A program made the translations under genes and the position numbers. 64,000 nt of DNA, taken from positions 67,126-131,125 of the forward strand of contig CAZBQI010000001.1 of assembly GCA_964494105.1 (NCBI GenBank), in the 5' to 3' direction. Shown piece by piece: positions 9,515-41,607 of this stretch (position 1 is its first letter; each line of letters opens with the position of its first letter). Origin of the DNA: an uncultured Candidatus Saccharibacteria bacterium. GTDB taxonomy: Bacteria; Patescibacteriota; Saccharimonadia; CAZBQI01. The notes under the pieces are model-generated. The model saw only the letters and a program-made list of their open reading frames with translations, made no database searches and was not told the DNA's origin.

Positions 9515-9536
9515 ATAGTAAATAAGAGGTGATGCA

Positions 9537-10994: not shown

Positions 10995-11076
10995 AACATA
11001 CCACTATAATTTATTTGACGAACAGCCTTTCTACCTCTATTATATAAGCATAAGTTAAGTGTGAGAAACCAAACAA

Positions 11077-11453: not shown

Positions 11454-14400
11454 ATGTCTAAGCCAAAACAATCAAACGCGCCCAAGAGCAATCTTAAAGT
11501 TCCTGATAATTCGCCGGTTACAGGGGCCGATTATTCAAATGCGGTCGGGACGCTACTATTAGAGAATTCAAAAAACAGCGCTCGTTTGCGACGTTGGGGT
11601 CTTTTAATGCTAGGGCTTCAGCTCGCCGGAGCAGCCCTACTAATAGTTACTGGATTGTCGTTCTTTAATACCTACTACAGCCAAAAGAATATCGAAAAAA
11701 TAAAGAAAGACCCACTTGGCGAAGTAAAGATAGATTTCCAAGACATTGCCAAAGGATCGATTGGGTTTGATCAGCTTGATCCAGGCGTTATTACCAAAAT
11801 TGAACAGATAGATCGCACTCTTTTAGGTCAGCAAGGTAAGGTTGGCCCCCAGGGGCCGGCCGGCTCGACAACCGGTTCGGTGATTAGTGTTGGGTCAGGC
11901 GCCGGCCTTACCGGTGGCACAATAACATCGCGCGGCACATTAGCAATTAGCGCACCAACCTGCGCCGCTAATGAACGGCTTAGCTGGACTGGCACGGCAT
12001 TTGCCTGCCAAGCTGTTGCCTCCGGCACTGCCTCCGGCACCAGCCCGATTGTGTTCGATAGCAACACTGGCGATATAAGTTGCCCCACGTGCCTGACTAC
12101 AGTTGGTATTGCGTTTTCGGCAGCAGCCGATAGTGGTACAGACCAAAATTTGAATATTGGCGATACCCTAAGCTTAATTGGTGGTAACGGTATTTCTACC
12201 GCTGCGTCACTTAGCAATAACATCACCTTTAGCCTTGTCGATACTGCCGTCACGCCCGGTTTCTATGGTACCACCAGCTCTGTACCGTCGTTTACCGTTG
12301 ATGCCCAAGGCCGAATAACTGCTGCCAGTGATACGGCGATTAGTATTAATGCCAGTGCTATTTCTGCGGGAACTCTATCTGTTACCCGTGGTGGTACCGG
12401 TGTCGATGGCTCAGGTGCTACCAATGGCCAGCTCCTGATTGGTAACGGCAGTGGTTACAGTTTAGCTAATCTTACGGCTACCGGTCCTTTGGGCGTTACC
12501 AATGGTGCCGGCACCATAAACCTCACTTGTGCAACTTGTGTTACGACCAGTGGTAACGGTGCCATTACCAGTTCTGGTGGCGATGTCACATTAAGCGGTA
12601 CTACAACTGGCCGGTTAATTGGCTCGGGCAATGTTAACTTTGATCTATCTTCTACCGGAGTGGTGGGTGCTACCTACGGTTCAGCCAGTTCAGTACCCGT
12701 CTTTACAGTTGATGGTAAGGGCCGCATTACTTCAGCCAGTAATACGGCGATTGCTGGTTTAACTAGTTCTAATTTATCGGGCAGTGCTGCCATCACTAAT
12801 GCCCAGTTACAAAATAGCGTTATCACCTTTAATTCGGGTAACGGCTTAACTGGTGGCGGGGCGGTGTCGCTTGGCGGCAGTACTAGCTTGGCCATTAGTG
12901 CGCCTACTTGTCTTTCAAACGAACGGCTTAGTTGGAGCGGGTCGGCCTTTACCTGCGCAACCGTTGCTGCAGGCGGTAGCCAGGCGGCGAACACCTTTTT
13001 TGCTGGGCCGAGCTCCGGCGGTGCGGCGGCGCCTGGTTTTCGCGGAATTGTTGCAGCCGATTTAGGTACCGGCACAGCTAATTCGCAATCCGTTTTGGCC
13101 GGTAACCAAACTTGGCTGCCATTGCTTGATGGCGGCGGCAAGATTTTAACCAGCCTATTGCCTGCCAGTGGTTTAAATTATCAAGGATCTTGGAACGCTA
13201 ATACCAATACGCCAAGCTTAAGTAGTAGTGGCGGCGGTGGCGTACAGGGCGATTTTTATATTATTGACGTGGCAGGAACAACCTCGATTGATGGTAATAG
13301 CACGTGGAACGTTGGCGACTGGATTCTAAATAATGGCGCAACATGGGATCGGATATCAAATACAAATGCGGTTAGTAGTGTTAATGGTCAAACTGGCGCG
13401 GTAGTACTAGATAGTGATGATGTATCGGAAGGCGTCAGTAACTTGTACTTTACCAATGCTCGTGCCCGCGGGGCACTATCCGGCACCGGGCCGATTAGTT
13501 ACAATTCCGGCACTGGAGTAATTGATTGCCCAACCTGTGTTACCACTAGTGGTAACGGGGATATTGTTTCCGGTACAGGCCTATCAATATCTGGCACAAC
13601 TACTGGACGACTCATTGGTACTGGCAATGTGACTTTTGGCTTGTCGACGGCTGTACCAACAAGTGTAGTAAACGACACCAACGTTACGGGCTCGATTTCG
13701 GCTAATGCTTTGACGCTGGGTTGGACTGGTCAACTATCAACAGCCCGTGGTGGTACCGGTGTCGATGGCTCAGGTGCTACCAATGGCCAGCTCCTGATTG
13801 GTAACGGCAGTGGTTACAGTTTAGCTAATCTTACGGCTACCGGTCCTTTGGGCGTTACCAATGGTGCCGGCACCATAAACCTCACTTGTGCAACTTGTGT
13901 TACGACCAGTGGTAACGGTGCCATTACCAGTTCTGGTGGCGATGTCACATTAAGCGGTACTACAACTGGCCGGTTAATTGGCTCGGGCAATGTTAACTTT
14001 GATCTATCTTCTACCGGAGTGGTGGGTGCTACCTACGGTTCAGCCAGTTCAGTACCCGTCTTTACAGTTGATGGTAAGGGCCGCATTACTTCAGCCTCCA
14101 ACACCGCCATTGCCCTAAACGCCTCTGCCATTACCGCCGGTACCCTCAGTGTTACCCGTGGCGGTACCGGAGTAGATGGTTCCGGCGCCACCAACGGCCA
14201 GCTGTTGATCGGTAACGGTACGGGGTACTCTTTGGCCACGCTAGCCTCATCCGGGCCTATTGGTATTACTAACTCCGCTGGTGGCATTAGTATTGGTTGT
14301 GCAACCTGCCTAACAACCGGTACAACCTTATTTACCGCGGCTGGTGATGTTGGTGTAAACCAAAGCGTGACCCAGGGCCAAACCATTACCTTTATTGGTG

Positions 14401-16385
14401 GCGTTGGTTTAACCACTACAGGTTCTGCTACCCGAAATATGACAATAGATTTGGATAATACCGCCGTCACCCCCGGTTCCTATGGTACTGCTAGTTCAGT
14501 AGGCTCATTTACTGTAGATGCGCAGGGACGAATTATCGCTGCTAGCAACTCATCGATATCTATCAACGCCAGCGCAATTACAGCCGGCACCGGGTCGGTA
14601 TCATTCACTTCTGCAACATCCAATGCAATTTCGCTCGACTCTGGAACAACCGGCGGGATAAATATTGGAACAGGTGCGAACTCGAAGACCATTACCATCG
14701 GTAACACTACCGGTACAACCGGTATTAACATCGACTCCGGTAGCGGTAACATTAATTTGCGTCCTGGTGGTTCCGGGACAACCGCTAATGTCCAAATAGG
14801 TGCTGGCGGGGCTGGCTCGACAACGCCCGATTTATTGGTGCTTGATAGAAAAAGTAGTGCCGGTGACCCTGCCGGTACCAACGGTGCAATGTATTATAAT
14901 GCTAGCTCAAATAAATTCCGTTGTTTCGAAAACTCCACCTGGAGGGACTGTATCAAGGGGTCAATAAACCTTGGTCATGCGGCCACCTACGACACGAACG
15001 AAGCCCTTACTAATGTGGCAGCTTCTCAGGTGACTCTCGGTACGGTATCTGTTACGCCAGCATCGGATACTGGTGATGTCTATGTAACTGGCAACGCGGA
15101 TGTCTATAGTAGCAACAATACCGACCAAACATTTGTATTTACCATAGAAACCGGGTCAACTTGTACCGGTACGACTGTGGCGACAAGGTCATATACAATT
15201 ACTGCATCGAACTCCGCAACGGTAGGCCGTGGCTCACTTGTAGTAAGTGGTATTGTCTCTGACCCCGGTGAGTCTTCGCAGGCATATTCACTCTGCGCAT
15301 CAACTGCAACAGGTGATACCGATGTTCTGAACTGGCGTATCGAAGCATTGGTTATTGAATCAGCAGGTGCTGATGTTGCGGAGATGTATTATACGCACGA
15401 TGATGCCCGGCCCGGCGAAGTTGTAAGTATTGACGGCAGTATGAAGGCTGGTGTTCGTAGATCAAACGGCTCGTACGATCCTATGGTGTTGGGTATTATA
15501 AGCACAAAGCCAGGGTACGTTCTTGCTGATGCTGAGGGGGTCGACCCTACGGCTAGGCCGGTTATACTGGCTCTTGCCGGTCGTGTTCCAGTCAAAGTTT
15601 CGGACGAAAATGGGCCAATAAAGGCTGGCGATGCGCTGACACCATCGTCGATACCGGGCGTGGCTATGAAAGCTACCCAAAACGGCTGGGTACTTGGCGT
15701 AGCCATAGAAGACCAAAAGCCAGGAGCGGGCACCTTGATGACTTTTGTGAATAGATCTTGGTATACAGGGGGCAGTAATAACCCCCCCTCACTGACCGGT
15801 ATGAGTTTAGGCGATGCAGATTTACCTGGCATAAAATCAGCCCAATCCGAAGGTGTAAAGAACGGCTTGCAATCAGAAAATCCGGAGTTGGTTGCTCAAG
15901 CTTTGGGCATTTTAAATGATATTCAAAATACGGTGGTAACCCAGCAAACCCAGCTCAACGCACTTGAAGCTAATCAAGCCAAAGCCAGCTCGAATTCACA
16001 GCAGATTAACCAAGCGATATTTAATGGCGGTATTGTGGCCGGCGATGTAGAGTTCCAAGGCAACGCCACCTTTAATGCTATCGCCACATTCAAGGGTCAG
16101 AGTGTCTTTAAGGGGGGTGCTATATTTGAAGGAGACGTAGCAATTAATGGGCGCGTGAAGTTCGGTGCTAATGGATCGGGCGTGGCAACTGTACCAGCCG
16201 GCGCCACGAGCGTTACAGTTAGCTTTACTAGCCCGTATGACGGACGGCCAATTGTAAACTTAACTCCTATAGATTACGACGGGAAATTCAAACTTAGTGG
16301 CGCATCGGCCGGTGGCTTTACGATTGTACTAGATTCGCCCGTGCCAAGCCCGGTAGAGTTTAACTGGTTAGCGAGTGAAAATTAA
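11454..16385 (+). CDS. giant (1643 aa) membrane-anchored repeat fibre protein (tail-fibre-like beta repeats)
   Basis: A cytoplasmic N-terminus of about 50 aa is followed by one TM helix (LLMLGLQLAGAALLIVTGLSFF). A short Gly-X-Y run follows (GQQGKVGPQGPAG). There are then many Gly/Thr/Ser-rich repeats carrying recurring CPTC / CATC motifs, including a protein-level repeat present in two exact copies. The C-terminal part is non-repetitive, with a coiled-coil-like segment (LNALEANQAKASS). Confidence 0.7.
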   Translation: MSKPKQSNAPKSNLKVPDNSPVTGADYSNAVGTLLLENSKNSARLRRWGLLMLGLQLAGAALLIVTGLSFFNTYYSQKNIEKIKKDPLGEVKIDFQDIAKGSIGFDQLDPGVITKIEQIDRTLLGQQGKVGPQGPAGSTTGSVISVGSGAGLTGGTITSRGTLAISAPTCAANERLSWTGTAFACQAVASGTASGTSPIVFDSNTGDISCPTCLTTVGIAFSAAADSGTDQNLNIGDTLSLIGGNGISTAASLSNNITFSLVDTAVTPGFYGTTSSVPSFTVDAQGRITAASDTAISINASAISAGTLSVTRGGTGVDGSGATNGQLLIGNGSGYSLANLTATGPLGVTNGAGTINLTCATCVTTSGNGAITSSGGDVTLSGTTTGRLIGSGNVNFDLSSTGVVGATYGSASSVPVFTVDGKGRITSASNTAIAGLTSSNLSGSAAITNAQLQNSVITFNSGNGLTGGGAVSLGGSTSLAISAPTCLSNERLSWSGSAFTCATVAAGGSQAANTFFAGPSSGGAAAPGFRGIVAADLGTGTANSQSVLAGNQTWLPLLDGGGKILTSLLPASGLNYQGSWNANTNTPSLSSSGGGGVQGDFYIIDVAGTTSIDGNSTWNVGDWILNNGATWDRISNTNAVSSVNGQTGAVVLDSDDVSEGVSNLYFTNARARGALSGTGPISYNSGTGVIDCPTCVTTSGNGDIVSGTGLSISGTTTGRLIGTGNVTFGLSTAVPTSVVNDTNVTGSISANALTLGWTGQLSTARGGTGVDGSGATNGQLLIGNGSGYSLANLTATGPLGVTNGAGTINLTCATCVTTSGNGAITSSGGDVTLSGTTTGRLIGSGNVNFDLSSTGVVGATYGSASSVPVFTVDGKGRITSASNTAIALNASAITAGTLSVTRGGTGVDGSGATNGQLLIGNGTGYSLATLASSGPIGITNSAGGISIGCATCLTTGTTLFTAAGDVGVNQSVTQGQTITFIGGVGLTTTGSATRNMTIDLDNTAVTPGSYGTASSVGSFTVDAQGRIIAASNSSISINASAITAGTGSVSFTSATSNAISLDSGTTGGINIGTGANSKTITIGNTTGTTGINIDSGSGNINLRPGGSGTTANVQIGAGGAGSTTPDLLVLDRKSSAGDPAGTNGAMYYNASSNKFRCFENSTWRDCIKGSINLGHAATYDTNEALTNVAASQVTLGTVSVTPASDTGDVYVTGNADVYSSNNTDQTFVFTIETGSTCTGTTVATRSYTITASNSATVGRGSLVVSGIVSDPGESSQAYSLCASTATGDTDVLNWRIEALVIESAGADVAEMYYTHDDARPGEVVSIDGSMKAGVRRSNGSYDPMVLGIISTKPGYVLADAEGVDPTARPVILALAGRVPVKVSDENGPIKAGDALTPSSIPGVAMKATQNGWVLGVAIEDQKPGAGTLMTFVNRSWYTGGSNNPPSLTGMSLGDADLPGIKSAQSEGVKNGLQSENPELVAQALGILNDIQNTVVTQQTQLNALEANQAKASSNSQQINQAIFNGGIVAGDVEFQGNATFNAIATFKGQSVFKGGAIFEGDVAINGRVKFGANGSGVATVPAGATSVTVSFTSPYDGRPIVNLTPIDYDGKFKLSGASAGGFTIVLDSPVPSPVEFNWLASEN
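12385..12737 (+). repeat. 353-bp perfect direct repeat, copy 1 (inside the giant gene)
   Basis: Identical by eye, base for base, to 13744-14096. Encodes RGGTGVDGSGATNGQLLIGNGSGYSLANLTATGPLGVTNGAGTINLTCATCVTT... Confidence 0.9.
13744..14096 (+). repeat. 353-bp perfect direct repeat, copy 2 (inside the giant gene)
   Basis: Identical to 12385-12737. The offset is 1359 bp, a multiple of 3. A third copy diverged at synonymous sites starts near 14157. Confidence 0.9.
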
Positions 16386-24372: not shown

Positions 24373-26106
24373 ATGGATGCTGTTGAGGAAATCAAGTCAC
24401 GCTTGAGTGTAGACGAAGTAGTTGGTAGCTATATACAGCTAAAACCTGCCGGGGCAAATTTGCGTGGGTTGTGTCCTTTTCATAACGAAAAAACGCCTAG
24501 TTTTATGGTTAGCCCCGAAAAAGGTATATGGCATTGCTTTGGCTGTGGCGAAGGCGGTGATATGTTTACTTTTGTCGAGAAAATGGAAGGCCTAGACTTT
24601 AAGGCTGTACTAGAAAAGCTAGCGATTAAAGCCGGGGTAACTATAGAGGCTTCGACTCCGATGGCAGCCAAGCACGCTAAGCAAAAAGAGCGCTTAATGA
24701 TGGCGCTAGAACTAGCTACAAAATACTTTCAGCGAGGATTGGTAAAAAGTAAAACAGCCCAAAACTACATTATTCGTATTCGCGGGTTTAATAAGTCTAC
24801 TGTAGAGACATTTCGACTAGGCTATAGTCCGGATTCTCAGTCCGGCCTGAGCACGCAGTTAATAAAGAACGGCTTTAGTGAAAGTGAACTTATTCAAGCG
24901 GGCTTAGCGCGCAAGCGGGGCAATGGATTGCAAGATATTTTTCGGGGGCGAATGATGGTGCCTTTTATGGACGCACAAGCTCGCACCATTGGCTTTACCG
25001 GTAGGCACATCGCTGACGATGCATTCGGGCCCAAATACCTAAATACGCCGGCTACGGCACTGTTCGATAAGAGTCGGTTTATCTTCGGATTGTCGGTTGC
25101 TCGCGAATACATTCGCGATAAGGATGAAGTAGTGGTAAGCGAAGGCAACCTGGATGTACTTACTTCATTTCAGGCGGGTATAAAAAACGTTGTGGCCAGT
25201 AGCGGAACGGCTCTGACTATTGCCCAGTTAAAAACGCTTTCTCGCATTACAAAAAATGTAAAACTGGCTTTCGACCAAGACAAGGCTGGTTTATCGGCTA
25301 CCGAACGAGCTATTCCGTTGGCCCAAGATGCCGGCGTCACGTTGTCGATTGTAGATCTAAGTGGGGCGAAAGATCCCGATGAACTTATTCATCAAAGCCC
25401 AAGAATTTGGGAAAAAGCTATCGCCGAGGCACCCTATATTATGGATTGGTTGCTAGATAATTTAGCGAGCAAGTATTCCATCACGACGGCTACCGGGAAA
25501 AAACAAGTCAGCGACTCCGCTACAGCCGCGATTGCGAAGTTAACAGATAGCGTAGAACAAGATCACTATGTCAAAAAACTAGCTAAGTTGTTGCAGGTTT
25601 CATCGGATTCAATCTGGCAAAAGCTAGAAAAACTATTGCCAATTTCAACGTCTCAAAATAAAAAAGCAAAGTTATCGACAAAGCCAAAGGTGCGCCCGGA
25701 AAGCCAAACGGTTGAAGAGGCATTGCTGGCGATTAATTTGATGTTTCCGGATAGTCGAACTAGTCTAGACGAGCTGACCGCCGAACATTTTAGCTCCCAA
25801 GAGCGCCAGACAATTTTCGAGGCACTGCGTGAACTAGGATCACAAACCATAGAAAATGACATGCCTAAGTCTTTGCGAGCTTACGACAACTATGTTAAAA
25901 TACTACTGTTACGTGCCGAAGAAGAATATCGTGATTGGGCAGCTCTAGATCGTCGTATTGAGGCATTTAGTTTAAGCCAACGACTCGGCGTGCTATATAT
26001 CAAACACCTTAAACAAAAAATAACCAATGAAATTCACAAGGCTGAAGGTCAAGGTGATAGCAGTCGTCGCGACAAATTACTACAGCAATTTCGCGACTTG
26101 AATTAA
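24373..26106 (+). CDS. dnaG: DNA primase
   Basis: CHC2 zinc finger (CPFHNEKTPSF...HCFGCGEGGD) and a TOPRIM region (EGNLDVLT). Confidence 0.9.
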   Translation: MDAVEEIKSRLSVDEVVGSYIQLKPAGANLRGLCPFHNEKTPSFMVSPEKGIWHCFGCGEGGDMFTFVEKMEGLDFKAVLEKLAIKAGVTIEASTPMAAKHAKQKERLMMALELATKYFQRGLVKSKTAQNYIIRIRGFNKSTVETFRLGYSPDSQSGLSTQLIKNGFSESELIQAGLARKRGNGLQDIFRGRMMVPFMDAQARTIGFTGRHIADDAFGPKYLNTPATALFDKSRFIFGLSVAREYIRDKDEVVVSEGNLDVLTSFQAGIKNVVASSGTALTIAQLKTLSRITKNVKLAFDQDKAGLSATERAIPLAQDAGVTLSIVDLSGAKDPDELIHQSPRIWEKAIAEAPYIMDWLLDNLASKYSITTATGKKQVSDSATAAIAKLTDSVEQDHYVKKLAKLLQVSSDSIWQKLEKLLPISTSQNKKAKLSTKPKVRPESQTVEEALLAINLMFPDSRTSLDELTAEHFSSQERQTIFEALRELGSQTIENDMPKSLRAYDNYVKILLLRAEEEYRDWAALDRRIEAFSLSQRLGVLYIKHLKQKITNEIHKAEGQGDSSRRDKLLQQFRDLN

Positions 26107-26131: not shown

Positions 26132-27247
26132 GTGCCAAGGAAACCAGCAGCTAAAACAGCTAAAGCAGAAGACAAAGAAGACCTAACCCCCGAAGGTATT
26201 GCCGAAACATTACTAAAGAAAGGCGTAGCCCAGGGCTTTATTGACTACACCGAAATCGCCAAAGCTTTGCCTGATGACGAAGAAAACTTAGAAGCACTCG
26301 ATTCCTTACATGGAAATTTGCTTGAAAAGAATGTGGAAATTATCAATCAAAAGGGCGGCCCATGGGAAGATGATGACGAGGACGAACCCGAAGAAGACGA
26401 CAAATACTTAGATGATATTGCCGATGACTCCGTGCGATTATATTTGCGTGAAATTGGTAAAATTCCCCTGCTAAATGCCGAGGAAGAAATAAAGCTTGCG
26501 AATAAAGTTAAGCGTGGTGACAAGCGCGCCAAAGACGCCATGGCCGAAGCTAACATGCGGCTCGTTGTATCGATTGCCAAGCGCTACGTTGGTCGCGGGC
26601 TGGATCTTTTAGACCTTATTCAAGAGGGCAACACTGGGCTCTTGCGAGCTGTAGAAAAGTTCGACCCTACCAAGGGCTTTAAATTTAGTACCTATGCTAC
26701 CTGGTGGATTCGCCAGGCTATTACCCGTGCCATTGCCGACCAGGCACGCACCATTCGTATCCCAGTGCACATGGTAGAGACTATAAACAAACTACTCCGG
26801 AACCAACGGCGCATGACCCAAGAACTTGGTCGTGAACCAACCAACGAAGAGCTAGCCAAAGAAATGGAAATGGAGGTCGAAAAAGTCGACCACATTATGA
26901 AGATCAAACAAGATATTAGCTCACTCGATGCGCCAGTACGCGATGACGAAGAAGATTCCAAGCTTGGAGACTTTATCGAAGACGAAGACAGTGACAGCCC
27001 TGAGGAGTCGGCTACGCAACAGCTTCTAAAAGAGCACGTAAATGAAATGCTCGATATTCTAACGCCACGCGAACAAAAAATTTTGCGCATGCGTTTTGGC
27101 TTAGATGATGGCCGTACGCACACCTTGGAAGAAGTTGGCCAAGAATTTGGTGTTACCCGTGAACGCATCCGGCAAATTGAGGCTAAAGCTCTGACGAAAC
27201 TACGCAAAAACCGCGACTCTAAGGCTCTCCGCGACTATTTGAAGTAG
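26132..27247 (+). CDS. rpoD: RNA polymerase sigma-70 factor
   Basis: Acidic region 1. Region 2.4 ([27 protein letters not shown]). Region 4 ([22 protein letters not shown]). Confidence 0.9.
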
Positions 27248-32539: not shown

Positions 32540-35182
32540 ATGAAACGGTTAGTAGTAATTGATGGTAAGTCTGTATTCTATCGGGGTTATTACGCCATGC
32601 CCAACCTGGCTACTCGCGATGGTACTCCGACGGGTGGAGTTTACGGTTTTGCCGTTTTGGCCCTGCAGATACTAAAAAAGCTCTCGCCCGACTACGTCGT
32701 TGTGGCTTGGGATAAAAGCAAAACTAATATTCGTTCTCGGCGCAAGTTGTACCCGGAGTACAAGGCCAATCGCAAACCAATGCCCGATGACATGCGCGAG
32801 CAAATTCCAGTCTTAAGAGAGCTACTAGAAGGTTTCAGCTGGCCGCTAATGGAAGTAGACGATTACGAAGCCGATGACATTATGGGGGCGCTAGCTAAAC
32901 AGGCACAGGCCAAAGGTATTGAAACAATCTTAGTAACCAGCGATATGGATTTACTACAGCTGGTAGACGGGAATATACAGCTTTATACGCTAAAAAAAGG
33001 CCTGACAAACATTGTGCACTACGACGACGCGCTTATTCAGGCAGAATTTGGTTTTAGCAAAGAAAAGTTTGACGATTACAAAGCGCTAAAAGGCGACAGC
33101 AGCGACAACATACCTGGAGTAGTGGGCATTGGTGATAAAACAGCCAAAGATTTGGTGCAAAAATACGAAACCCTAGAGAATATCTACGAACATATTGATA
33201 ATTTTAAGGGTGCTCTACGAAAGAATTTAGAAGAAAACAAAGAAATGGCTTTCTTAAGTCGAGAACTGGTGCACATTATGGTTGATGCCCCTGTAAAATT
33301 AGATTTAAAGGCGGCAGACGTGCAAGATGCCAACCCGGCTAAGATCGCCGATTTGTTCCAGCAACTTTCATTTAAGCGATTGATCGAGGAACTGCCTAGT
33401 CAAATGAAGGCGGAGCAACAACTGTTTACAACAGCAAACGAGCCAAAAAATGACTCACTCGATGTTAGGCCGACGAAAGTAATTGCCGATACAAAAGAGT
33501 TGGCTAGTGTTGTACCGAAAAGTACCAAAGAAGTTGTTCTATACTCATTTTTTAATCCACATGAATCATGGCAACTTCCCGTGCTGGACGGCGTATTATT
33601 TACGCTCGATGGTAAGCAATCGTATCTGATAGAAGGTAAAGAGAAGGCTCTATTGAAGACTTTTGGTACTCTATTGCAAAACAATAATATTGGCTTGATT
33701 GGTTATGACCTAAAGCAAGACATAGAAGCCTGGATTGATGTTGGAATTAGTTTAGAAAAGGTAACTTTTGATGTCATGGATGGTGCGTTTTTGCTGAATG
33801 CACTACTGCGCGAACAAACTTTGCATGATTTAGCTCAAGTCGAGCTTGGCATAAAACTGCCGGAGTTTGAACGCACTAGCGCAATAGATCACTCCCTGGC
33901 TGGTGCTGTAATGACTGCAATATGGAAGCTGTTTCAAACATATGAGAAGCAAATAAACAAATTGCCAAAAGTTTTGAAGGTTGCTGAGGAAATTGAATGG
34001 CCAATTATCCCTGTTCTGGCTCGCATGGAGTACCAGGGAATTCAGCTCGAAAGTAGCTATCTGGATAAAATGTCCAAAGATTTTGAACAAAAAATTGCCA
34101 GTGTTACCGAGCTTATTTATAAAGAATCAAAAACCGAGTTCAATATTAGCTCACCTGCGCAATTGCAAACTGTTCTGTTCGAAACTTTGGCCCTGCCAAA
34201 AGCTTTTGTTAAAAAAACCAAAACTGGCTATTCTACGGCGGCTAGCGAGCTCGAAAAACTGCGAAGTCTGCACCCCATAATTGACCTTATTACCCACTAT
34301 CGCGAACTAACAAAGCTCAAAAGCACCTATGTAGATGCCCTGCCGAAGCTGGTAGATAAACAGGGGCGTTTGCACACGAGCTTTAAGCTGACGGTAGCAC
34401 AAACCGGCCGTTTAAGCAGTGATAACCCGAACCTAATGAATATACCGGTGCGTACAGAGGCCGGACGGCTAATACGCAACGCTTTTGTGGCTAAAAGTGG
34501 CAATATGCTTATCAGTGCCGATTACTCGCAGTTTGAGCTACGCATTGCGGCGTGCTTAGCTAATGATAAAAACATGATTCATGCGTTTAACCAGGGCATA
34601 GACATTCACGCCATGACAGCTGCAGAGCTGGCCGACAAAGAAATCGGCGATGTTACCAAGTTTGAGCGCCGTGCCGCTAAGGTAGTTAATTTTGGCGTGC
34701 TGTACGGCATGAGTCCGCACGGCTTAAGTGTGGCAACGGGAATGACACGGGATAAAGCCAAGGAATTTATAGAGAGATACTTCGAGGTGCGCCAACCCCT
34801 GGTTAAATACCTGGATGGTTTGGTTACTCAAGCTAAAGCGGATGGTTATGTAGAGACACTATTTGGCCGGCGCCGGCCAGTGCCAGACATTCACTCGAGT
34901 AATTTTGTAGTGCGTAACGCCGCTGAGCGCCAAACCATGAACATGCCTATTCAGGGCACGGCTGCTGACCTGATGAAGTTGGCCATGATAGAGGTAGACA
35001 AACAGCTCGACGATGATTGCCAAATGTTACTGCAAATTCACGACTCGATTTTGGTTGAAGCTCCCAAAGCTAAAGCTAAGAAAATAGCAGAACGAGTAAA
35101 AAAAATCATGGAAAACATATATCAACTACCGGTAAGACTTGATGTTGACGTAGCCATTGGTAAAAACTGGGGCGAGCTTTAA
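32540..35182 (+). CDS. polA: DNA polymerase I
   Basis: 880 aa. It has a 5'-3' exonuclease/FEN domain, a central region in the 3'-5'-exonuclease position, and pol A motifs (DYSQFELRIAA, KVVNFGVLYGMS, QIHDS). Confidence 0.9.
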   Translation: MKRLVVIDGKSVFYRGYYAMPNLATRDGTPTGGVYGFAVLALQILKKLSPDYVVVAWDKSKTNIRSRRKLYPEYKANRKPMPDDMREQIPVLRELLEGFSWPLMEVDDYEADDIMGALAKQAQAKGIETILVTSDMDLLQLVDGNIQLYTLKKGLTNIVHYDDALIQAEFGFSKEKFDDYKALKGDSSDNIPGVVGIGDKTAKDLVQKYETLENIYEHIDNFKGALRKNLEENKEMAFLSRELVHIMVDAPVKLDLKAADVQDANPAKIADLFQQLSFKRLIEELPSQMKAEQQLFTTANEPKNDSLDVRPTKVIADTKELASVVPKSTKEVVLYSFFNPHESWQLPVLDGVLFTLDGKQSYLIEGKEKALLKTFGTLLQNNNIGLIGYDLKQDIEAWIDVGISLEKVTFDVMDGAFLLNALLREQTLHDLAQVELGIKLPEFERTSAIDHSLAGAVMTAIWKLFQTYEKQINKLPKVLKVAEEIEWPIIPVLARMEYQGIQLESSYLDKMSKDFEQKIASVTELIYKESKTEFNISSPAQLQTVLFETLALPKAFVKKTKTGYSTAASELEKLRSLHPIIDLITHYRELTKLKSTYVDALPKLVDKQGRLHTSFKLTVAQTGRLSSDNPNLMNIPVRTEAGRLIRNAFVAKSGNMLISADYSQFELRIAACLANDKNMIHAFNQGIDIHAMTAAELADKEIGDVTKFERRAAKVVNFGVLYGMSPHGLSVATGMTRDKAKEFIERYFEVRQPLVKYLDGLVTQAKADGYVETLFGRRRPVPDIHSSNFVVRNAAERQTMNMPIQGTAADLMKLAMIEVDKQLDDDCQMLLQIHDSILVEAPKAKAKKIAERVKKIMENIYQLPVRLDVDVAIGKNWGEL

Positions 35183-35188
35183 TTTTAT

Positions 35189-36112
35189 ATGAATCCAGAA
35201 ACAACAATAACAAAACAACAAATACGTAGTATCTTTAAGCATCATAGTCTATCTCAAAATCCTGAAATTAATCGGATAACAATCGGATTCAGCAATGAGA
35301 TTCATCGAGTTGATGACTACATTCTAAAAATCTACGTCCACAAAGACGAGGAAGGCTCATTTGATAAAGAATCGAAGTTTTATCGAGAACTTTACGGCAA
35401 AGTGTTAGTGCCAAGACTGCTTGTTGCCGATAAAAGCAGAGAAATTATAAAGAAGCCGTATATTATTTATGAAATGATTCCTGGCCAATCACTTGGCAAT
35501 TGCTGGCACCTACTTAATGATGAGCAAAGGAGGGGAATTATCAAAGTTGTGTGTGAACAACTAAAAATAATCATGGCGAACTATCCTGATGGTATTTTAG
35601 ATAAAGCGGAGTCTTGGCAAGATTATATTGTTGGGAGGTTAGAGGAAAAGTTAGCAACCGACAAAATAATCCGAATAATTTCGAATCAAACGAAAAGTCT
35701 GATTAATCAATACATTGCGAAAAATCGACATGTTCTAGAGCCGGCAAGGCTTGAATATACGTATTGGGACTTACACCAAGACAATATTATTGTTGACAAT
35801 GGCGGCCGAGTTACTGGCCTAATTGATTTTGAGCACATTGATGTTGTTTCTGTAGACTACCTATTAAACACTGTCCGACGAATGGTTTTAGACCCGGCTC
35901 GAAATGTAAGCGTGGAGATGGAAAAATATGCCAAGGTTGAAGATTACGCACATGTAATGGATTGGTTCCGTGAGTTTCTACCAGAGGCTTTTAACTTTTC
36001 GCATCTCGAGACCCGACTGGACTTTTACGAGCTAGATGAAGACCTGCGGATTTTACCGGATTTTCCAAAAGCGAAAACGTTGCACGATAGTATTGCTAGG
36101 ATAGTAGGATGA
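35189..36112 (+). CDS. APH / choline-kinase-like phosphotransferase family protein
   Basis: The motifs HQDNIIVDN and GLIDFEH correspond to the HGDxxxxN and IDxE motifs of the aminoglycoside phosphotransferase-like kinase fold. Starts 6 nt after polA. Confidence 0.7.
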   Translation: MNPETTITKQQIRSIFKHHSLSQNPEINRITIGFSNEIHRVDDYILKIYVHKDEEGSFDKESKFYRELYGKVLVPRLLVADKSREIIKKPYIIYEMIPGQSLGNCWHLLNDEQRRGIIKVVCEQLKIIMANYPDGILDKAESWQDYIVGRLEEKLATDKIIRIISNQTKSLINQYIAKNRHVLEPARLEYTYWDLHQDNIIVDNGGRVTGLIDFEHIDVVSVDYLLNTVRRMVLDPARNVSVEMEKYAKVEDYAHVMDWFREFLPEAFNFSHLETRLDFYELDEDLRILPDFPKAKTLHDSIARIVG

Positions 36113-36645
36113 ATTCGTTTATTTTTGTTCGTCACGGTGAAAGCCAAGCCAATGCATCTGGCCTAATTGCCACGCTAGATTCACCACTAACAGAAAAAGG
36201 TAAAGAGCAAGCTCATAAAACTGGGCAAGAATTAAAAAACAAAGGTATTGATACAATTCTTTGTTCACCACTAACTCGAGCCAGACAGACTGCCGAAATT
36301 ATTGCCGGGGAACTTAAAATTAACTCATCAAAAATCCAAATAGTAGATGATTTGCAGGAGCGTCTTGCACCTGGTTTTGAAGGAAAACGAAAGGAACACC
36401 CAGGTGAGTGGTATATTACAACCGATGATCCGCGCGAGGAATCAAGGCAAGTACTGGTAGAACGCATGGCAAGAGCTTTGGACTTAATCAGAAAGGCCGT
36501 TGGTAAAAAAGAGAATGTTCTGGTAGTTGGTCATGGAGCATCGGGTTACTATTTGTTTGAAGTTGCTAAAGGCAAAACCAAGTACAGTGAGTTTGAGCCC
36601 CCAGAACTTATGTTGAACGCTGATTACGTAAAAGTAGAATTATGA
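36109..36645 (+). CDS. histidine phosphatase family protein (phosphoglycerate-mutase-like)
   Basis: The N-terminal RHGES motif (FVRHGESQAN) and a later H (VVGHGAS). 4-nt overlap with the upstream gene. Confidence 0.75.
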   Translation: MNSFIFVRHGESQANASGLIATLDSPLTEKGKEQAHKTGQELKNKGIDTILCSPLTRARQTAEIIAGELKINSSKIQIVDDLQERLAPGFEGKRKEHPGEWYITTDDPREESRQVLVERMARALDLIRKAVGKKENVLVVGHGASGYYLFEVAKGKTKYSEFEPPELMLNADYVKVEL

Positions 36646-37208
36646 TTAAGGCGATAATTTTTGACTGTTTTGGCGTGCTGTACCCCGATGCGTCGTGGGA
36701 TTTTTTTAACAGTCTTAAAGACACCGGCAAACTAACGCGCGAAAAGTTGCTTGTGCACAACGAACAGGCAGACCTAGGGAAACTAAGCGAGGAAGAGTAT
36801 TACAAATACTACTCGGAACAAACAGGTATTCCTGTGCAGTCAATTAAGGACGGTGTGTACGCCAATTTTAGCCCTAATAAAGAAGTTTTTGAGGTGTTAA
36901 AAAAAATGGCCAGTAAATATCAGATTGGCTTGGTAACCAATGCCACAGTTTTTGATATGTTTATGCTCAAACGCGACGGAGTAGAAAAATATCTAGACTC
37001 AATAATCGTTTCGGCGAGCGTTGGTGTGACAAAGCCAAGTCCAAAAATATATCACTTGTCTGCTGAAGAATTAGGGGTTGAGCCAGAGCAGTGTATCTTT
37101 ATTGATGACCGCCAGCGCAATTTGGACGGAGCGACCAAAGTTGGCATGAAATGTGTTCTGTTTAAAAATGCCAAGCAACTAAATCAAGAATTGAAGCGAG
37201 TGCTATGA
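36642..37208 (+). CDS. HAD-superfamily hydrolase
   Basis: Motif I is IIFDCFGVL, motif II is VTNAT, and motif III/IV is K...IDDRQRNL. 4-nt overlap. Confidence 0.7.
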   Translation: MIKAIIFDCFGVLYPDASWDFFNSLKDTGKLTREKLLVHNEQADLGKLSEEEYYKYYSEQTGIPVQSIKDGVYANFSPNKEVFEVLKKMASKYQIGLVTNATVFDMFMLKRDGVEKYLDSIIVSASVGVTKPSPKIYHLSAEELGVEPEQCIFIDDRQRNLDGATKVGMKCVLFKNAKQLNQELKRVL

Positions 37209-37825
37209 GTCAGCGGGATTTTTGGGAAGAGTGGAATAAGGAACATAAAGATACAGAGCAGGCCAGCGAATCAGTAAAGGAATTTGGCTATCTTATTAAC
37301 CCCGGCTGCAAAGTTTTAGAGTTGGGATGTGGCCCGGGAGTAGATGCTTCGTACTTAGCCAAAGATCATAAGGTTATTGCCACTGATTTTGCCGAGTCTG
37401 CCATTAGGCAGAACAAACAAGAGTTTAAGCAGTTAAAGAACCTGGAATTCATACAGCATGACACCAGCGAGCGGCTACCCTTTAAAGATGAAATATTCGA
37501 TGGCATCTATGCTAGGCTAACTCTGCATTATTTTGATGATAAAACTACCAGGGCAATTTTTACTGAAATTCATCGAGTATTAAAACCAAATGGAGTGTTT
37601 TATTTCGTTTGTAAATCTACTTTTGAACACTTTTTTGGCAAGGGGCGGAAAATAAACAAAGACACGTTTATTGATGATGCAAATAACTTGCGCCATTTCT
37701 TTTCAGAGGAATTCACCCGCAATAATCTAGAGGGGTTGTTTCGCGAAGAGAAGCTCGAGGTTAAAGATATGCTTATTTATGACAGCGATTCGAACGTGGT
37801 GGTATGTGTTGCTACTAAAATCTAG
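37205..37825 (+). CDS. class I SAM-dependent methyltransferase
   Basis: Glycine-rich motif I (VLELGCGPGVD) and motif II (VIATDF). 4-nt overlap. Confidence 0.8.
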   Translation: MSQRDFWEEWNKEHKDTEQASESVKEFGYLINPGCKVLELGCGPGVDASYLAKDHKVIATDFAESAIRQNKQEFKQLKNLEFIQHDTSERLPFKDEIFDGIYARLTLHYFDDKTTRAIFTEIHRVLKPNGVFYFVCKSTFEHFFGKGRKINKDTFIDDANNLRHFFSEEFTRNNLEGLFREEKLEVKDMLIYDSDSNVVVCVATKI

Positions 37826-38304
37826 CCAACCTGTGCAACTTCGACTAAACGCACTAGTGGTATTTGCCTGTCACCGGCCTGCTTTTGATAATCCTCATAC
37901 CATGAGCGATCTGCCGTGAGGGCTGCCCATGTTTCGGAATAATCATCACCAGTGAGAATCTGTGGCTCAACGTCATGTAGTCCGTTTTGTGCTAGTACGG
38001 TGATGAGTGGATCGCCTCGATCTCGTATATTTAAAAACCAGGCGGGATCATGTTCGGCACCCTGAAATGAAGCCACGACTATAGAATTACCGGTGGCATC
38101 TTGCCAAATAGGCAGTGCAACTTTGCGTTCTTCACCAGATTTGCGCCCCTTGGTGTAAAGCACTATATTTTCCATGCCTCCCATTTGCCATAGAGGTGTA
38201 TTTGGGTCTTTTTCTAGTTCACTTACGTGCCATGCACTTATCTTGGTTATTTCCGCAGGAGTAAGATCATCCCAGTCACGTTCCACCCCTTGATCTGTAG
38301 GCAT
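37822..38304 (-). CDS. hypothetical protein
   Basis: 160-aa ORF. Its stop overlaps the methyltransferase stop convergently. No recognisable motif. Confidence 0.4.
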   Translation of the reverse strand: MPTDQGVERDWDDLTPAEITKISAWHVSELEKDPNTPLWQMGGMENIVLYTKGRKSGEERKVALPIWQDATGNSIVVASFQGAEHDPAWFLNIRDRGDPLITVLAQNGLHDVEPQILTGDDYSETWAALTADRSWYEDYQKQAGDRQIPLVRLVEVAQVG

Positions 38305-38369: not shown

Positions 38370-38621
38370 TTAACCGTACTTGATTTTGTATATATCAACA
38401 ATCAATACAAGACATAGCAATATGCCGTTGCCAAATATTATGACAGGGTCGTTCCTGGCTATGCCATATGTAAGCCACAGGCTCAAAGAAACTGTGGCGA
38501 TCAGTAGCCATATAAGCGACAAGTCCTTGGTATGTTTAGTTTTTACCGTCTTAACAACTTGCGGTATAAAACCAATAACACCTAGAATTCCGGCTGCAGA
38601 GCCAATGGCGTCAATAATCAT
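38370..38621 (-). CDS. SemiSWEET (PQ-loop / MtN3-like) sugar transporter
   Basis: 83 aa and 3 TM helices. The PQ motif is in TM1 (GFIPQVVKTVKTK). The size and pattern are typical of bacterial SemiSWEETs. Confidence 0.65.
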   Translation of the reverse strand: MIIDAIGSAAGILGVIGFIPQVVKTVKTKHTKDLSLIWLLIATVSLSLWLTYGIARNDPVIIFGNGILLCLVLIVDIYKIKYG

Positions 38622-38643: not shown

Positions 38644-39021
38644 ATGGCAAAAACAAATTACCTCGCTGTTTACGGCACGCTTAAGCGCGAATTTGATTTA
38701 CCGATTATGAAAAAAGTTGAATCTGCGCTGTCGTATGAACAAGAGTGTGTTATACCAGGCAAGATATACGATTACGGCAGATACCCGGCCTTGGTTTTGG
38801 GTGAGGGCAAAGTGCATGCAGAACTTTACAAAATACACGATGAATCTGCACTTAAATTACTTGATGAGTACGAAGCAGTTGATAACGAACACAGTGAGTG
38901 GCCGGGTTTTCGCCGCACAAGGGTTACTTTGATTGAACCGAAAATTTTGTGCTGGGTGTATGAATATACCGGGAGCTTAGAGGGCGTGTCGCTGGTTGAA
39001 TCAGGCGAGTGGCATGCCTGA
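38644..39021 (+). CDS. gamma-glutamylcyclotransferase-like (AIG2/GGACT family) protein
   Basis: N-terminal YLAVYGTLKRE motif and a later E (YEAVD), with the size of the AIG2-like fold. Confidence 0.5.
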   Translation: MAKTNYLAVYGTLKREFDLPIMKKVESALSYEQECVIPGKIYDYGRYPALVLGEGKVHAELYKIHDESALKLLDEYEAVDNEHSEWPGFRRTRVTLIEPKILCWVYEYTGSLEGVSLVESGEWHA

Positions 39022-39889
39022 GTTGCCGGAAGTAGAAACAATCCGCAGAGGCTTAGATGGATTGATTGTGGGTCAAACATTCTCGAGTGTCGATGTTATT
39101 TTCTATAAAACGATAACTACAAAGTCCTTGACGCCAGTAATTGGCAGTAAAGTATTACGTGTAGCACGACGGGGCAAAGTTTTAATTGTTGAATTGACAA
39201 ACAATCTATCGCTCTTGGTTCATCTAAAAATGACCGGTCAACTGATCTTAGTGCAAAGTGAAAATAAAAGATTCGGAGGCGGACATCCTACCAAAAGTAT
39301 GACTTCTAAGTTGCCAGATTCCAGCACAAGGGCAGTCTTTGTTTTTAGAAGTGGCGATAGATTATTCTTTAACGACCAGCGTAAATTTGGCTGGATCAAG
39401 CTAATACCTACTGGCTTGGTAGATGGTGATTCGCTGATTGCCCGCCTAGGCCCCGAGCCTTTAAGCGAGGGCTTCACGTTGGCAGATTTTAAGGCGAGGC
39501 TGCAAAAACGCAGTGGGCCAATTAAAGCGGTCCTGCTCGACCAGTCTACCGTAGCTGGCCTTGGCAATATCTATGTAGACGAGGCGCTACATATGGCTAA
39601 AATTCACCCAAGCACTCCGGCCAATGCGGTCTCTAATACTAAAGTAAAAGCGCTGTATATTGCCATCCCGAAAATCCTGAATCAATCATTAGGCAAAGGC
39701 GGCACGAGCTTTACTCCGGCAGCTGCCGGATTTGTGAATCATATGGGTTTTATGGGTGATTACCTCAAGCACGCTCGTGTTTTTAGGCGCGAAGGCAAGC
39801 CGTGCCCGGAGTGCCACACAACAATCAATAAGATTCGAGTAGCGGGGCGGGGCACACATATTTGTCCGAAATGCCAACGTGAGCCTTAA
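39014..39889 (+). CDS. mutM: formamidopyrimidine-DNA glycosylase
   Basis: Start trimmed to MPELPEVETIRRGL (catalytic Pro2). H2TH region. C-terminal zinc finger (CPECHTTINKIRVAGRGTHICPKCQ). Overlaps the upstream gene by 8 nt. Confidence 0.85.
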   Translation: MPELPEVETIRRGLDGLIVGQTFSSVDVIFYKTITTKSLTPVIGSKVLRVARRGKVLIVELTNNLSLLVHLKMTGQLILVQSENKRFGGGHPTKSMTSKLPDSSTRAVFVFRSGDRLFFNDQRKFGWIKLIPTGLVDGDSLIARLGPEPLSEGFTLADFKARLQKRSGPIKAVLLDQSTVAGLGNIYVDEALHMAKIHPSTPANAVSNTKVKALYIAIPKILNQSLGKGGTSFTPAAAGFVNHMGFMGDYLKHARVFRREGKPCPECHTTINKIRVAGRGTHICPKCQREP

Positions 39890-39910: not shown

Positions 39911-40663
39911 ATGACACATTTAGAGTTTGCGACCAAATTAGCTCGTGAAGCTGGCGCTGTTATTAAGGCCAACTTTGCCATTGGTATGAAAAAAGACTGG
40001 AAGGCCGACGACACACCGGTAACTGTTACCGACCACGCCATAAATAGAACCGTAATTGAAGCAGTTAGAAAAACTTACCCCAAAATGAGCCTACTGGGCG
40101 AAGAGGACAGCTTTATGGTGGAGGGGTCGGAATACACTTGGGTTTGTGACCCGGTAGATGGCACCATTCCTTTCTCGCACGGCGTGCCGACCTGTATGTT
40201 CTCGCTAGCTTTGGTAAAAAACGGCGAAAGCATCCTTGGTGTTTTGTACGAGCCATTTTTAAACAGAATGTTTACAGCTGAAAAAGGTAAAGGTGCATTT
40301 TTGAACGGCAAGCCAATTCAAGTGAGCAAAGCCAAGACTTTCAAGCGCTCAATTACCAGCGTAACTGAGCCCGGAGCCTATAAGGCTTTTGTCGATGCCG
40401 GCTCGCGGGTTATGAGTTTGCTTTCGTATTGTTATGTTTCGTCTTTGGTGGCTAGTGGTGAGCTCACCGCGGCAGTAGCCTGGAAATGGGCAGGGGCCTG
40501 GGATGTGGCTGCAGTAAAAGTAATAGTCGAAGAAGCTGGTGGCAAGGTAACCGACCTACGGGGTAACGAGCAACGCTACGACGGGCCACTAAACGGCGCA
40601 ATTGCCACAAATGGCATATTGCACGCCGAAGCACTAAAGCTGGTGCAGGTAGATAAGCCGTGA
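39911..40663 (+). CDS. inositol monophosphatase family protein
   Basis: Motifs LLGEE, WVCDPVDGT and the WAGAWD region. Confidence 0.8.
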   Translation: MTHLEFATKLAREAGAVIKANFAIGMKKDWKADDTPVTVTDHAINRTVIEAVRKTYPKMSLLGEEDSFMVEGSEYTWVCDPVDGTIPFSHGVPTCMFSLALVKNGESILGVLYEPFLNRMFTAEKGKGAFLNGKPIQVSKAKTFKRSITSVTEPGAYKAFVDAGSRVMSLLSYCYVSSLVASGELTAAVAWKWAGAWDVAAVKVIVEEAGGKVTDLRGNEQRYDGPLNGAIATNGILHAEALKLVQVDKP

Positions 40664-41607
40664 TTATCTTTTTCTACGGCCCAAACAACTTTGCTGCGCG
40701 CCGTAAGTTACAAGAAACCATTACACGGTTCAAAAGTACTACCGGCAATGATTTTAGCTTAGAGCAATTTTACGGTAGTAGTCATAATTTAAGTGCTAAC
40801 GAGGTAGTTAGCGCCATTACTACTGTGCCATTTCTGGCTGCCAACCGCCTAATAGTATTAGAAGAAATTCTGTCTAACAAGAAACTGGCCGAGGTGCTGA
40901 TACCGGCGCTTAATGACGTACCAAAAGAAACAGTTGTTTTAATACATGAATTAAAAGTAGACGAGCGGACCAAGCTTTTTAAGGAGCTCAAGAAACTTGC
41001 CAAAAGCGTGAAGTTTGAACAGCTAAGAGAGCACCAGCTGACTGCCTGGGTTCAAAAAACTACTAAAGAATTTGGCGGCAGAATAGACTCGTCTACCGCG
41101 AATTTTCTGGTAGAGCGCGTAGGGAATAATCAGTGGCGGTTATGGAATGAAATTCAGAAACTAGTGTCTTATAATTCACTCATTACCAGCAAAAGCATCA
41201 TCTTGCTGGCAGAGCCGGCATTTGAGAGCTCAATTTTTGATATGGTTGAAGCAATAGCAAGCGGGCGAACGGCAGAGGCGGTGAGCTTGTACTTGGGACT
41301 AAGAAATCAGAAGGCCCAACCACTGTATATTCTTTCAATGATTGCCTGGCAGATTCGTAATTTACTAGTAGTAAAGGCTGCCAGCTCGAGTTCAGAGAAT
41401 AACATTAGCGATGCCAAGATATCACCATTTGTTGTTAATAAAATTCGTCCGCTTACAAATGGCATTGAGCTAGACAACATCATAAAAAGCTATAAATCTA
41501 TTCAAGAGACCGACCTAAAGTTAAAGACTACCCAGACGAATCCGGATATAGAAATGCAGCAATTAATTTTGCGAGTAACTGGCTTAATTCTGCCTACTGC
41601 TCGATAG
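40660..41607 (+). CDS. holA: DNA polymerase III delta subunit
   Basis: The N-terminus IIFFYGPNNFAARRK and overall all-alpha layout are typical of HolA. GTG start overlapping the upstream stop. Confidence 0.6.
   Translation: MIIFFYGPNNFAARRKLQETITRFKSTTGNDFSLEQFYGSSHNLSANEVVSAITTVPFLAANRLIVLEEILSNKKLAEVLIPALNDVPKETVVLIHELKVDERTKLFKELKKLAKSVKFEQLREHQLTAWVQKTTKEFGGRIDSSTANFLVERVGNNQWRLWNEIQKLVSYNSLITSKSIILLAEPAFESSIFDMVEAIASGRTAEAVSLYLGLRNQKAQPLYILSMIAWQIRNLLVVKAASSSSENNISDAKISPFVVNKIRPLTNGIELDNIIKSYKSIQETDLKLKTTQTNPDIEMQQLILRVTGLILPTAR

Follow-up and report, generated by a model that had tools for sequence, protein, structure and literature searches.

What are four genes for putative small-molecule-modifying enzymes doing directly behind the gene for DNA polymerase I? 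The question is raised by a 64,000-nucleotide stretch of contig CAZBQI010000001.1 from an uncultured Candidatus Saccharibacteria bacterium (this whole stretch is the window referred to throughout). There polA, the first gene of the string, encodes a full-length DNA polymerase I of 880 amino acids (aa; 32540-35182, forward strand) and is followed on the same strand by predicted genes for an APH-fold kinase (35189-36112; 307 aa), a branch-1 (RHG) histidine phosphatase (36109-36645; 178 aa), a HAD-IA hydrolase (36642-37208; 188 aa) and a class I S-adenosylmethionine (SAM)-dependent methyltransferase (MT; 37205-37825; 206 aa), all four annotated from their open reading frames (ORFs) and Pfam matches. 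An earlier note on this DNA suggested that the four form a single pathway or modification cassette. That proposal largely fails on co-conservation, the kinase and HAD genes being swapped or missing in relatives. Our preferred answer, to which we give about an even chance, is that a replication and repair operon contains an accretion slot, that the four genes are its lineage-specific filling, and that they encode independent, broad-specificity clean-up and modifying enzymes, probably co-expressed with polA.

The tight packing described in the earlier note was borne out at every junction. The TAA of polA ends at 35182 and the kinase ATG lies at 35189; the 6-nt spacer between them on the forward strand (TTTTAT, 35183-35188) has no space for a promoter or terminator. 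The kinase/phosphatase, phosphatase/HAD and HAD/MT junctions are each a 4-nt ATGA overlap. For each of the four proteins the alignment with homologues begins at residue 1, which supports the start codons and hence the overlaps. By a simple longest-ORF gene call, 4-nt overlaps occur in 6 of the 53 same-strand adjacent gene pairs of the window, and three of these six belong to the four-gene run. Between 31.8 and 41.8 kb, promoter- and terminator-like sites were not enriched over shuffled sequence, and none of the terminator-like ones fell at the polA/kinase junction or at the three internal junctions. Given the 6-nt gap, the overlaps and the lack of any excess of such sites, it is plausible that the four genes are co-transcribed with polA.

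Related contigs, identified here by locus number, were found by searching with the phosphatase and MT sequences. In L158 (PolA 92% identical to that of the window over its C-terminal part), polA is followed by genes for a 151-aa membrane protein, the histidine phosphatase, the HAD protein and the MT, and then by reductase, PQ-loop, GGACT and fpg genes; identities to the window proteins are 84% for the phosphatase, 85% for the HAD protein, 46% for the MT and 55% for the reductase. L152 (PolA 89%) has the same tail, with a GNAT gene ahead of the phosphatase (88%), HAD (79%), MT (70%) and reductase (56%) genes. L154 (PolA 76%) has neither kinase nor HAD gene; its phosphatase (53%) and MT (61%) genes are followed by reductase and PQ-loop genes, a GGACT remnant, fpg and holA. 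L001 (PolA 68%) reads dnaG-rpoD-polA, then APH (69%), phosphatase (46%), NUDIX and MT (58%) genes, then fpg, a second NUDIX gene and holA. More distantly, L155 and L159 (PolA approximately 53%) share the layout polA, aldo-keto reductase, Ham1p/ITPase, phosphatase (53-55%), HAD (approximately 30%), fpg and holA, with other genes after the phosphatase and after fpg. Three NUDIX genes precede the Ham1p-phosphatase order in L159, and Ham1p, deoxycytidine monophosphate (dCMP) deaminase and phosphatase genes overlap one another in L155. L006 and L007 (PolA 54-56%) have one unrelated gene between polA and fpg and none of the block.

All four genes thus occur together in the window only; L001, L152 and L158 each have three of them, L154 has two, L155 and L159 have one or two, and L006 and L007 have none. 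The tight coupling and the linkage to polA that the earlier note described are real, but only the phosphatase and MT pair is conserved, being kept in 5/5 genomes whose PolA is at least 68% identical. The MT gene is present in L152, L158, L154 and L001. The phosphatase, which lies between polA and fpg in L158, L152, L154, L001, L155 and L159, is the most conserved member of the polA-fpg slot. Within the clade, the histidine phosphatase and MT form a stable core and the kinase and HAD genes are individually replaceable.

What does not change from genome to genome is the coupling. Every variant shows start/stop overlaps of 1-11 nt (TAGTG, TAATG, TTGA, GTGA or ATGA) or spacers of at most 6 nt, and the phosphatase/HAD and HAD/MT ATGA junctions of the window are kept in L152 and L158. 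Since newly arrived slot genes are again coupled start to stop, tight coupling is a property of the locus and not evidence of a shared pathway.

A broader survey places this turnover within a conserved frame. The window PolA retrieved 60 loci, which include other Saccharibacteria and Patescibacteria and many Chloroflexia; in 41 of these, fpg was detected 0.1-5.5 kb downstream of polA, and the genes in the interval (histidine kinases, AAA proteins, unknowns) are unrelated between genomes. As fpg recurs after polA with different genes between them, the four genes fill a variable slot in a polA…fpg…holA frame.

Three further observations concern the contents of the slot. The L158 MT (2303-2941) is only 46% identical to that of the window, and the flanking HAD, phosphatase and fpg products are 80-85% identical; judging by these identities, the MT and reductase genes seem either to have been swapped for divergent alleles or to be evolving much faster. 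In L152, the last nucleotides of polA recur, in another reading frame, at the 3' end of the inserted GNAT gene (7540-7555 and 7981-7995; 14/15 nt, AAAAACTGGRGCGAA); this looks like a duplicated target left by insertion of the GNAT gene, and approximately 1% of random 45-nt windows score equally. In L159, a PPDK_N and PEP-utilizers gene pair, resembling a split dikinase, lies directly 3' of the orthologous phosphatase (9531-11429). Rifampin phosphotransferases carry these same two domains.

On our preferred reading, a string running dnaG-rpoD…polA, slot, fpg, slot, holA would be conserved in a Saccharibacteria-like (Patescibacteria) chromosome, and the four genes of the window would most likely be read from the polA message and translated by stop/start coupling. 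The enzymes would act separately, not as successive steps on one substrate. The occupant of the first position, here the APH kinase, is exchangeable with a GNAT acetyltransferase, a membrane protein or nothing, and is probably a nucleoside- or xenobiotic-modifying accessory; in the third position, held here by a HAD protein that lacks the acid/base Asp, relatives may have a NUDIX hydrolase or no gene at all. Taken together, the slot genes may serve hygiene of nucleotide and metabolite pools in an organism living on salvaged precursors. Three considerations suggest this house-cleaning role: the slot of relatives holds NUDIX, ITPase and dCMP deaminase genes; the frame consists of polA, the 8-oxoguanine glycosylase gene fpg and holA; and salvage-dependent cells must police their nucleotide pools (PMC12887539). 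Salvage kinases can admit damaged nucleosides to the deoxynucleoside triphosphate pool (PMC12887539). The flavour of metabolite hygiene or modification that the earlier note detected is therefore in keeping with the NUDIX, Ham1p/ITPase, dCMP deaminase and GNAT genes of relatives, and its suggestion of one pathway is not. Co-transcription, the house-cleaning role and the substrates are proposals; the gene anatomy, catalytic motifs, folds, gene turnover and retained coupling were observed directly.

None of the four proteins bears a name in its source database, and all are singletons or pairs at 90% clustering. No function-specific (equivalog) NCBIfam model reached its cut-off for any of them, all scoring far below, and none groups with a known housekeeping pathway, the other outcome that the earlier note had named as refuting it. 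The four fold assignments of that note (APH kinase, histidine phosphatase, HAD protein, MT) agree with Pfam; its count of two phosphatases is not secure for the HAD protein.

The kinase bears most directly on the strongest alternative. It scores 57.1 bits against PF01636 (APH; cut-off 23.2). The catalytic loop D194-x4-N199 and the Mg-binding D213 (in IDFE) are invariant in 24 family members, the ATP-binding K47 and helix-C E61 nearly so, and further invariant residues (W193, D223, Y253, W259, R276 and Y280) line the C-lobe pocket. The AlphaFold2 (AF2) model (pLDDT 93) has a bilobal kinase fold. By its motifs and model, the slot-1 product appears to be an active-looking APH-fold small-molecule kinase. 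The sequence alone matched no PDB chain at E<=1 by phmmer. With the family profile, the best PDB matches were APH(2'')-Ia (1e-6), macrolide 2'-phosphotransferase and hygromycin kinase, and all 50 listed Foldseek matches in the PDB were aminoglycoside kinases (APH(2'')-IVa/Ia, APH(4)-Ia and APH(7'')), with TM scores of 0.6-0.7, probability 1.0 and 12-18% identity to APH(2'') and APH(4) enzymes.

These matches argue for a set of drug- or xenobiotic-modifying genes, in which a resistance-type enzyme occupies the first position and a TehB-like MT and the deazaflavin-dependent reductase beyond it detoxify small toxins met on antibiotic-producing actinobacterial hosts. Such a reading, which we consider unlikely though it survives best among the alternatives, gains from the alternation of APH and GNAT genes, both classic aminoglycoside-modifying folds, at one position (window versus L152), from islands in which some kinase homologues lie beside recombinase, AraC-regulator and glyoxalase-fold genes, and from the growth of cultivated Saccharibacteria on Actinobacteria (PMC10633639). 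The MT fold, which matches TehB, halide MTs and a heterocyclic-toxin MT, is also in its favor. However, the kinase is only 12-18% identical to any resistance kinase, and no NCBIfam resistance model matched it (the sole NCBIfam match was homoserine kinase, at 17 bits). Its family has isoelectric points (pI) of 5-9 and is not uniformly very acidic. A plasmid-borne resistance gene was considered and rejected, as tblastn of the kinase against the 72,556 plasmids of PLSDB returned nothing. Moreover, the third alternative for the first position (L158) is a membrane protein without an enzyme domain, GNATs are ubiquitous, and the PDB is rich in aminoglycoside kinases, which biases the list of matches.

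The kinase family is small and uncharacterised, and comes mostly from candidate-phyla metagenome contigs: we found 106 representatives of 50%-identity clusters at E<=1e-30 among 1.84 billion searched, one homologue being named Ca. Chromulinivoraceae. We surveyed the genes within three genes of the kinase at 91 loci, from metagenomes and assemblies, which reduce to 55 distinct groups. NUDIX genes and P-loop AAA_18/33 kinase genes were each neighbors in 5/55 groups, methyltransferases in 3/55, histidine phosphatases, ASCH-RNase H genes and integrases or recombinases in 2/55 each, and HAD genes in 0/55; no recurrent partner rose above approximately 10% across the 55 distinct loci. Other neighbors encode MazG, Ham1p, HIT, NT5C, a 2'-5' RNA ligase-family protein and an AlaX-like protein. 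Two family members (P0235 and P0249) are fusions with an N-terminal ASCH domain, and elsewhere the kinase start lies within a 4-nt overlap with an ASCH-RNase H gene (for example, L066 5210-6930). YqfB and other ASCH enzymes remove the acetyl group of N4-acetylcytidine in nucleoside catabolism or salvage (PMC6972931; bioRxiv 10.64898/2026.08.01.741249). The ASCH links are a possible hint that the kinase substrate is a (modified) nucleoside or is related to RNA. Overall, the survey suggests a modest, repeated link between the kinase family and nucleotide or nucleic-acid housekeeping.

Could the four enzymes nevertheless work in succession on one small molecule, the kinase phosphorylating, the MT modifying and the hydrolase or hydrolases dephosphorylating, as in a route from ethanolamine through phosphoethanolamine and phosphocholine to choline? 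We regard this as quite improbable, in view of the gene-by-gene turnover. The MT scores 74-80 bits against Methyltransf_25/11, above the Pfam cut-offs, and has a SAM-binding LELGCGPG (GxGxG) motif, an acidic D61, and the family motifs LHYF, CKS and RHFF; with its AF2 model (pLDDT 94.7), these features identify it as a predicted compact class I SAM-dependent methyltransferase. Its best Foldseek matches are unannotated structural-genomics MTs, METTL6 and TehB, with halide MTs and a heterocyclic-toxin MT also found; query-normalised TM scores reach 0.83 for METTL6 and are 0.70-0.81 for other top MTs such as TehB. The top PDB match by sequence is plant phosphoethanolamine N-methyltransferase (PMT; E 5.5e-20), and together with the three successive ATGA overlaps, the phosphatase and MT pair kept in five genomes and the kinase-phosphatase-hydrolase-MT order retained in L001, this favors a single pathway. 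The PMT score, however, adds up two MT domains; taken singly, the better of them reaches 43.9 bits, level with the 43.8 bits of the generic, unannotated MT 1wzn, and PMT ranks only 20th by fold. We therefore rejected a phosphoethanolamine-methylation pathway, the kinase also not being choline-kinase-like: it matched PF01636 only and not the Choline_kinase family, and its best profile and fold matches in the PDB are antibiotic kinases. Gene content contradicts successive steps. Of the relatives that retain the remaining genes, the three closest lack the kinase or have another gene in its place, the HAD gene is replaced or missing in two relatives (L001 and L154), and the 55 kinase loci show no recurrent partner. 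A known anti-phage defence system was also rejected; the sole PADLOC match was a partial MT-domain alignment to mad2 (132/492 positions).

The position of the block between polA and fpg invites a further alternative, nucleic-acid end-healing. Here the phosphatase would clear the 3'-phosphates left by Fpg before gap filling by PolA, the kinase would phosphorylate 5'-OH ends and the MT would mark RNA or DNA, giving a PNKP- or Pnkp/Hen1-like set assembled from other folds. Fpg/Nei beta,delta-elimination does leave a 3'-phosphate, and in mammals the repair that NEIL enzymes initiate relies on the HAD phosphatase of PNKP. The phosphatase scores 112 bits against PF00300 (His_Phos_1), above the Pfam cut-off, and R8, H9, G10, N15, R57, E84 and H142 are invariant in 14 sequences, which assigns it, on its residues, to the branch-1 histidine phosphatase superfamily with a predicted full catalytic set. 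Across the six related genomes examined that carry its homologue, no other gene is retained throughout between polA and fpg. The RNase H-ASCH, 2'-5' RNA ligase-family, AAA_33 and HIT neighbors of the kinase family, and the resemblance of the MT fold to the tRNA methyltransferase METTL6, also point this way. Against this, no histidine phosphatase is known to us to work on DNA ends, no ligase is present, and the kinase is dispensable in close relatives. The HAD protein is a poor candidate as well. It belongs by score to the HAD-IA group (HAD_2/Hydrolase approximately 60 bits, above the Pfam cut-offs; TIGR01509 69 bits, cut-off 29), with nucleophile D8, K131 of motif III and D155-D156 of motif IV invariant and T99 of motif II replaced by Ser in distant homologues, and it weakly matches pyrimidine 5'-nucleotidase and YjjG models. 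Its motif I, FDCFGVL, places Phe10 at Asp+2, so that the acid/base Asp is missing, a feature invariant in 5 homologues down to 30% identity. Because motif I is without the second Asp of the DxD that PNKP-type phosphatases need, the phosphatase label is insecure and the protein may not be an ordinary phosphatase. A full end-healing set is accordingly very improbable. The bolder surmise that the phosphatase is a DNA 3'-phosphatase for Fpg ends and the APH kinase sometimes a 5'-kinase (a PNKP-like pair in folds never seen in that role), strikes us as highly unlikely; in a milder form, hinted at by the ASCH fusions, the kinase family could be specific to candidate phyla and act on (modified) nucleosides in salvage.

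As improbable as the full end-healing set is a protein kinase/phosphatase switch, with an RdoA/SrkA-type kinase and a SixA/MutT1-CTD-type phosphatase regulating a replication or repair protein: one kinase homologue carries the JGI label 'Ser/Thr protein kinase RdoA', SixA and MutT1-type models weakly match the phosphatase (as does PRK07238), and the MutT1 C-terminal domain dephosphorylates sensor kinases (PMC12407098), but the phosphatase falls below the cut-offs of the dPGM, CobC, SixA, PspA and GpmB equivalogs (best scores 73 bits against 225, 72.5 against 162.9 and, for SixA, 45 against 74.5), the best fold matches of the kinase are small-molecule kinases, and the two genes are together at only 2/55 kinase loci, the kinase being absent from L152, L154 and L158.

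We return to the reading that we prefer, the filling of a slot with independent clean-up enzymes, against which several points weigh. The comparison covers only about eight distinct related genomes. The function-specific models lie far below cut-off for all four proteins, only about a fifth of the kinase loci have a nucleotide-type neighbor, and small genomes often carry NUDIX, methyltransferase and P-loop genes in any case. The phosphatase and MT pair of five genomes could reflect a real two-enzyme pathway, and drug modification would account for the APH/GNAT alternation and the aminoglycoside-kinase fold match as well as nucleotide hygiene does. Finally, the RHG domain of MutT1 acts on phospho-histidine proteins, not on nucleotides (PMC12407098).

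If the slot reading is correct, the locus would be an example of genome organization in ultra-small episymbionts in which the polA-fpg-holA string is a docking place where enzymes are exchanged singly. Each arriving gene would become coupled start to stop, and tight coupling in compact genomes would be no proof of a shared pathway; the persistence of coupling through gene replacement is in itself mildly interesting. Two leads also follow. The first is the small kinase family associated with ASCH, NUDIX and P-loop kinase genes, whose substrate, once identified, could be relevant to how Saccharibacteria salvage nucleosides or tolerate drugs; the second is the conserved phosphatase and MT pair beside polA. 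Our search of the literature on Saccharibacteria with these enzyme types found nothing specific to this cluster.

The run sits in ordinary chromosomal surroundings; the window also carries dnaG, rpoD and genes for PNPase, RNase J, FtsK and PilM. Within the species-level genome collection, the best matches to PolA come from metagenome-assembled genomes of Candidatus Saccharibacteria (54-57% identity), of which one is filed under Saprospiraceae. Both on the forward strand and identified by Pfam, dnaG (24373-26106) and rpoD (26132-27247) form the upstream end of the conserved replication and transcription backbone; these lie 5 kb upstream of polA in the window, dnaG-rpoD-polA are contiguous in L001, and rpoD-polA in L155. 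PolA itself scores 928 bits against PRK05755 (cut-off 720) and has the Pfam 5'-3' exonuclease and DNA_pol_A domains. The GC content is 38.5% in the kinase gene, 44% in polA and 44% in the window; at third codon positions (GC3) it is 36% in the kinase gene, 30% in the phosphatase gene and 45% in polA. This composition is no more than suggestive of a foreign origin or recent transfer of the kinase and phosphatase genes, or of weaker codon constraint. No structured RNA or riboswitch was found across the window at Rfam gathering thresholds. A 1643-aa ORF without a Pfam match (11454-16385) lies in the only GC-rich stretch of the window (approximately 50%, against an average of 44%).

Downstream, a convergent gene of the deazaflavin-dependent nitroreductase family (37822-38304, reverse strand; PF04075 and TIGR00026 above cut-offs) sets the 3' limit of the string. 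Its stop overlaps that of the MT gene at 37822-37825 in a palindromic CTAG, which leaves no terminator space, and the 4-nt convergent overlap recurs in L154 and L158. Next come two variable slot fillers identified by Pfam and conserved in L152 and L158, a PQ-loop/MtN3 SemiSWEET-like membrane gene (38370-38621, reverse strand; 83 aa) and a GGACT/AIG2-like gene (38644-39021, forward strand). The PQ-loop protein has the size of a bacterial SemiSWEET sugar transporter and is 91-93% identical in L152 and L158, where its neighbors are far more diverged. Between the PQ-loop gene and fpg of L154, only the first 30 GGACT codons are left (5633-5722), a decayed remnant. For fpg/mutM, identified by Pfam and tblastn synteny, the listed ORF opens at a TTG at 38996; homologues align from residue 7 (MPELPEVE), and the true start is probably the ATG at 39014, giving coordinates of 39014-39889 (forward strand) and an 8-nt overlap with the end of the GGACT gene (39021). 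Once its Met has been removed, Fpg must begin with Pro. An inositol-monophosphatase-family gene (39911-40663, forward strand; Pfam) and holA (40660-41607, forward strand), the downstream end of the conserved backbone, follow.

Among known systems, PNKP and T4 Pnk and the bacterial Pnkp-Hen1 proteins offer, on paper, the same list of activities (kinase, phosphatase or phosphatases, MT) beside repair genes. The folds differ, however: an APH kinase stands in place of a P-loop kinase, and an RHG phosphatase and a DxD-less HAD protein in place of DxDxT HAD or calcineurin-type phosphatases. The block also lacks a ligase and a match to the Hen1 model, and its kinase is not conserved with the rest. 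With the antibiotic kinases APH(2'')-IVa/Ia and APH(4)-Ia, the kinase shares the bilobal fold, the D-x4-N loop, the Mg-binding Asp, the ATP-binding Lys/Glu and a length of about 300 aa; it differs in its low identity to them (12-18%), the lack of a resistance model, a variable pI and an origin mostly in candidate-phyla contigs. The frame recalls macromolecular-synthesis-type operons, of which the E. coli operon is rpsU-dnaG-rpoD. In relatives dnaG-rpoD directly precede polA, and in the window they lie 5 kb upstream; the classical operon does not extend through polA, fpg and holA with accessory enzyme genes interposed.

A functional parallel can also be drawn to the house-cleaning hydrolases (MutT-type NUDIX, Ham1p/ITPase, MazG and YjjG-type HAD proteins), a concept for nucleotide hydrolases reportedly set out by Galperin and colleagues in 2006. 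The slot of relatives has NUDIX, Ham1p and dCMP deaminase genes beside the orthologous phosphatase, whereas the four window proteins lie below the cut-offs of those families and the window slot has no NUDIX or ITPase gene. MutT1 and Rv2228c (an RNase H fused to a CobC-like histidine phosphatase) likewise tie an RHG phosphatase to a nucleotide-sanitising or nucleic-acid enzyme. The mycobacterial MutT1 is a Nudix domain fused to an RHG histidine-phosphatase domain (PMC12407098), and in L001 the phosphatase and NUDIX genes overlap start to stop; the activities are fused in MutT1 and Rv2228c and in separate genes here. The phosphatase domain of MutT1 is reported to have phospho-histidine sensor kinases as its targets (PMC12407098), so this precedent leaves a nucleotide substrate unfixed. 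Set beside these systems, the locus contains nothing categorically new: the genes add new, uncharacterised members to well-known superfamilies, and their arrangement is a lineage-specific operon variant.

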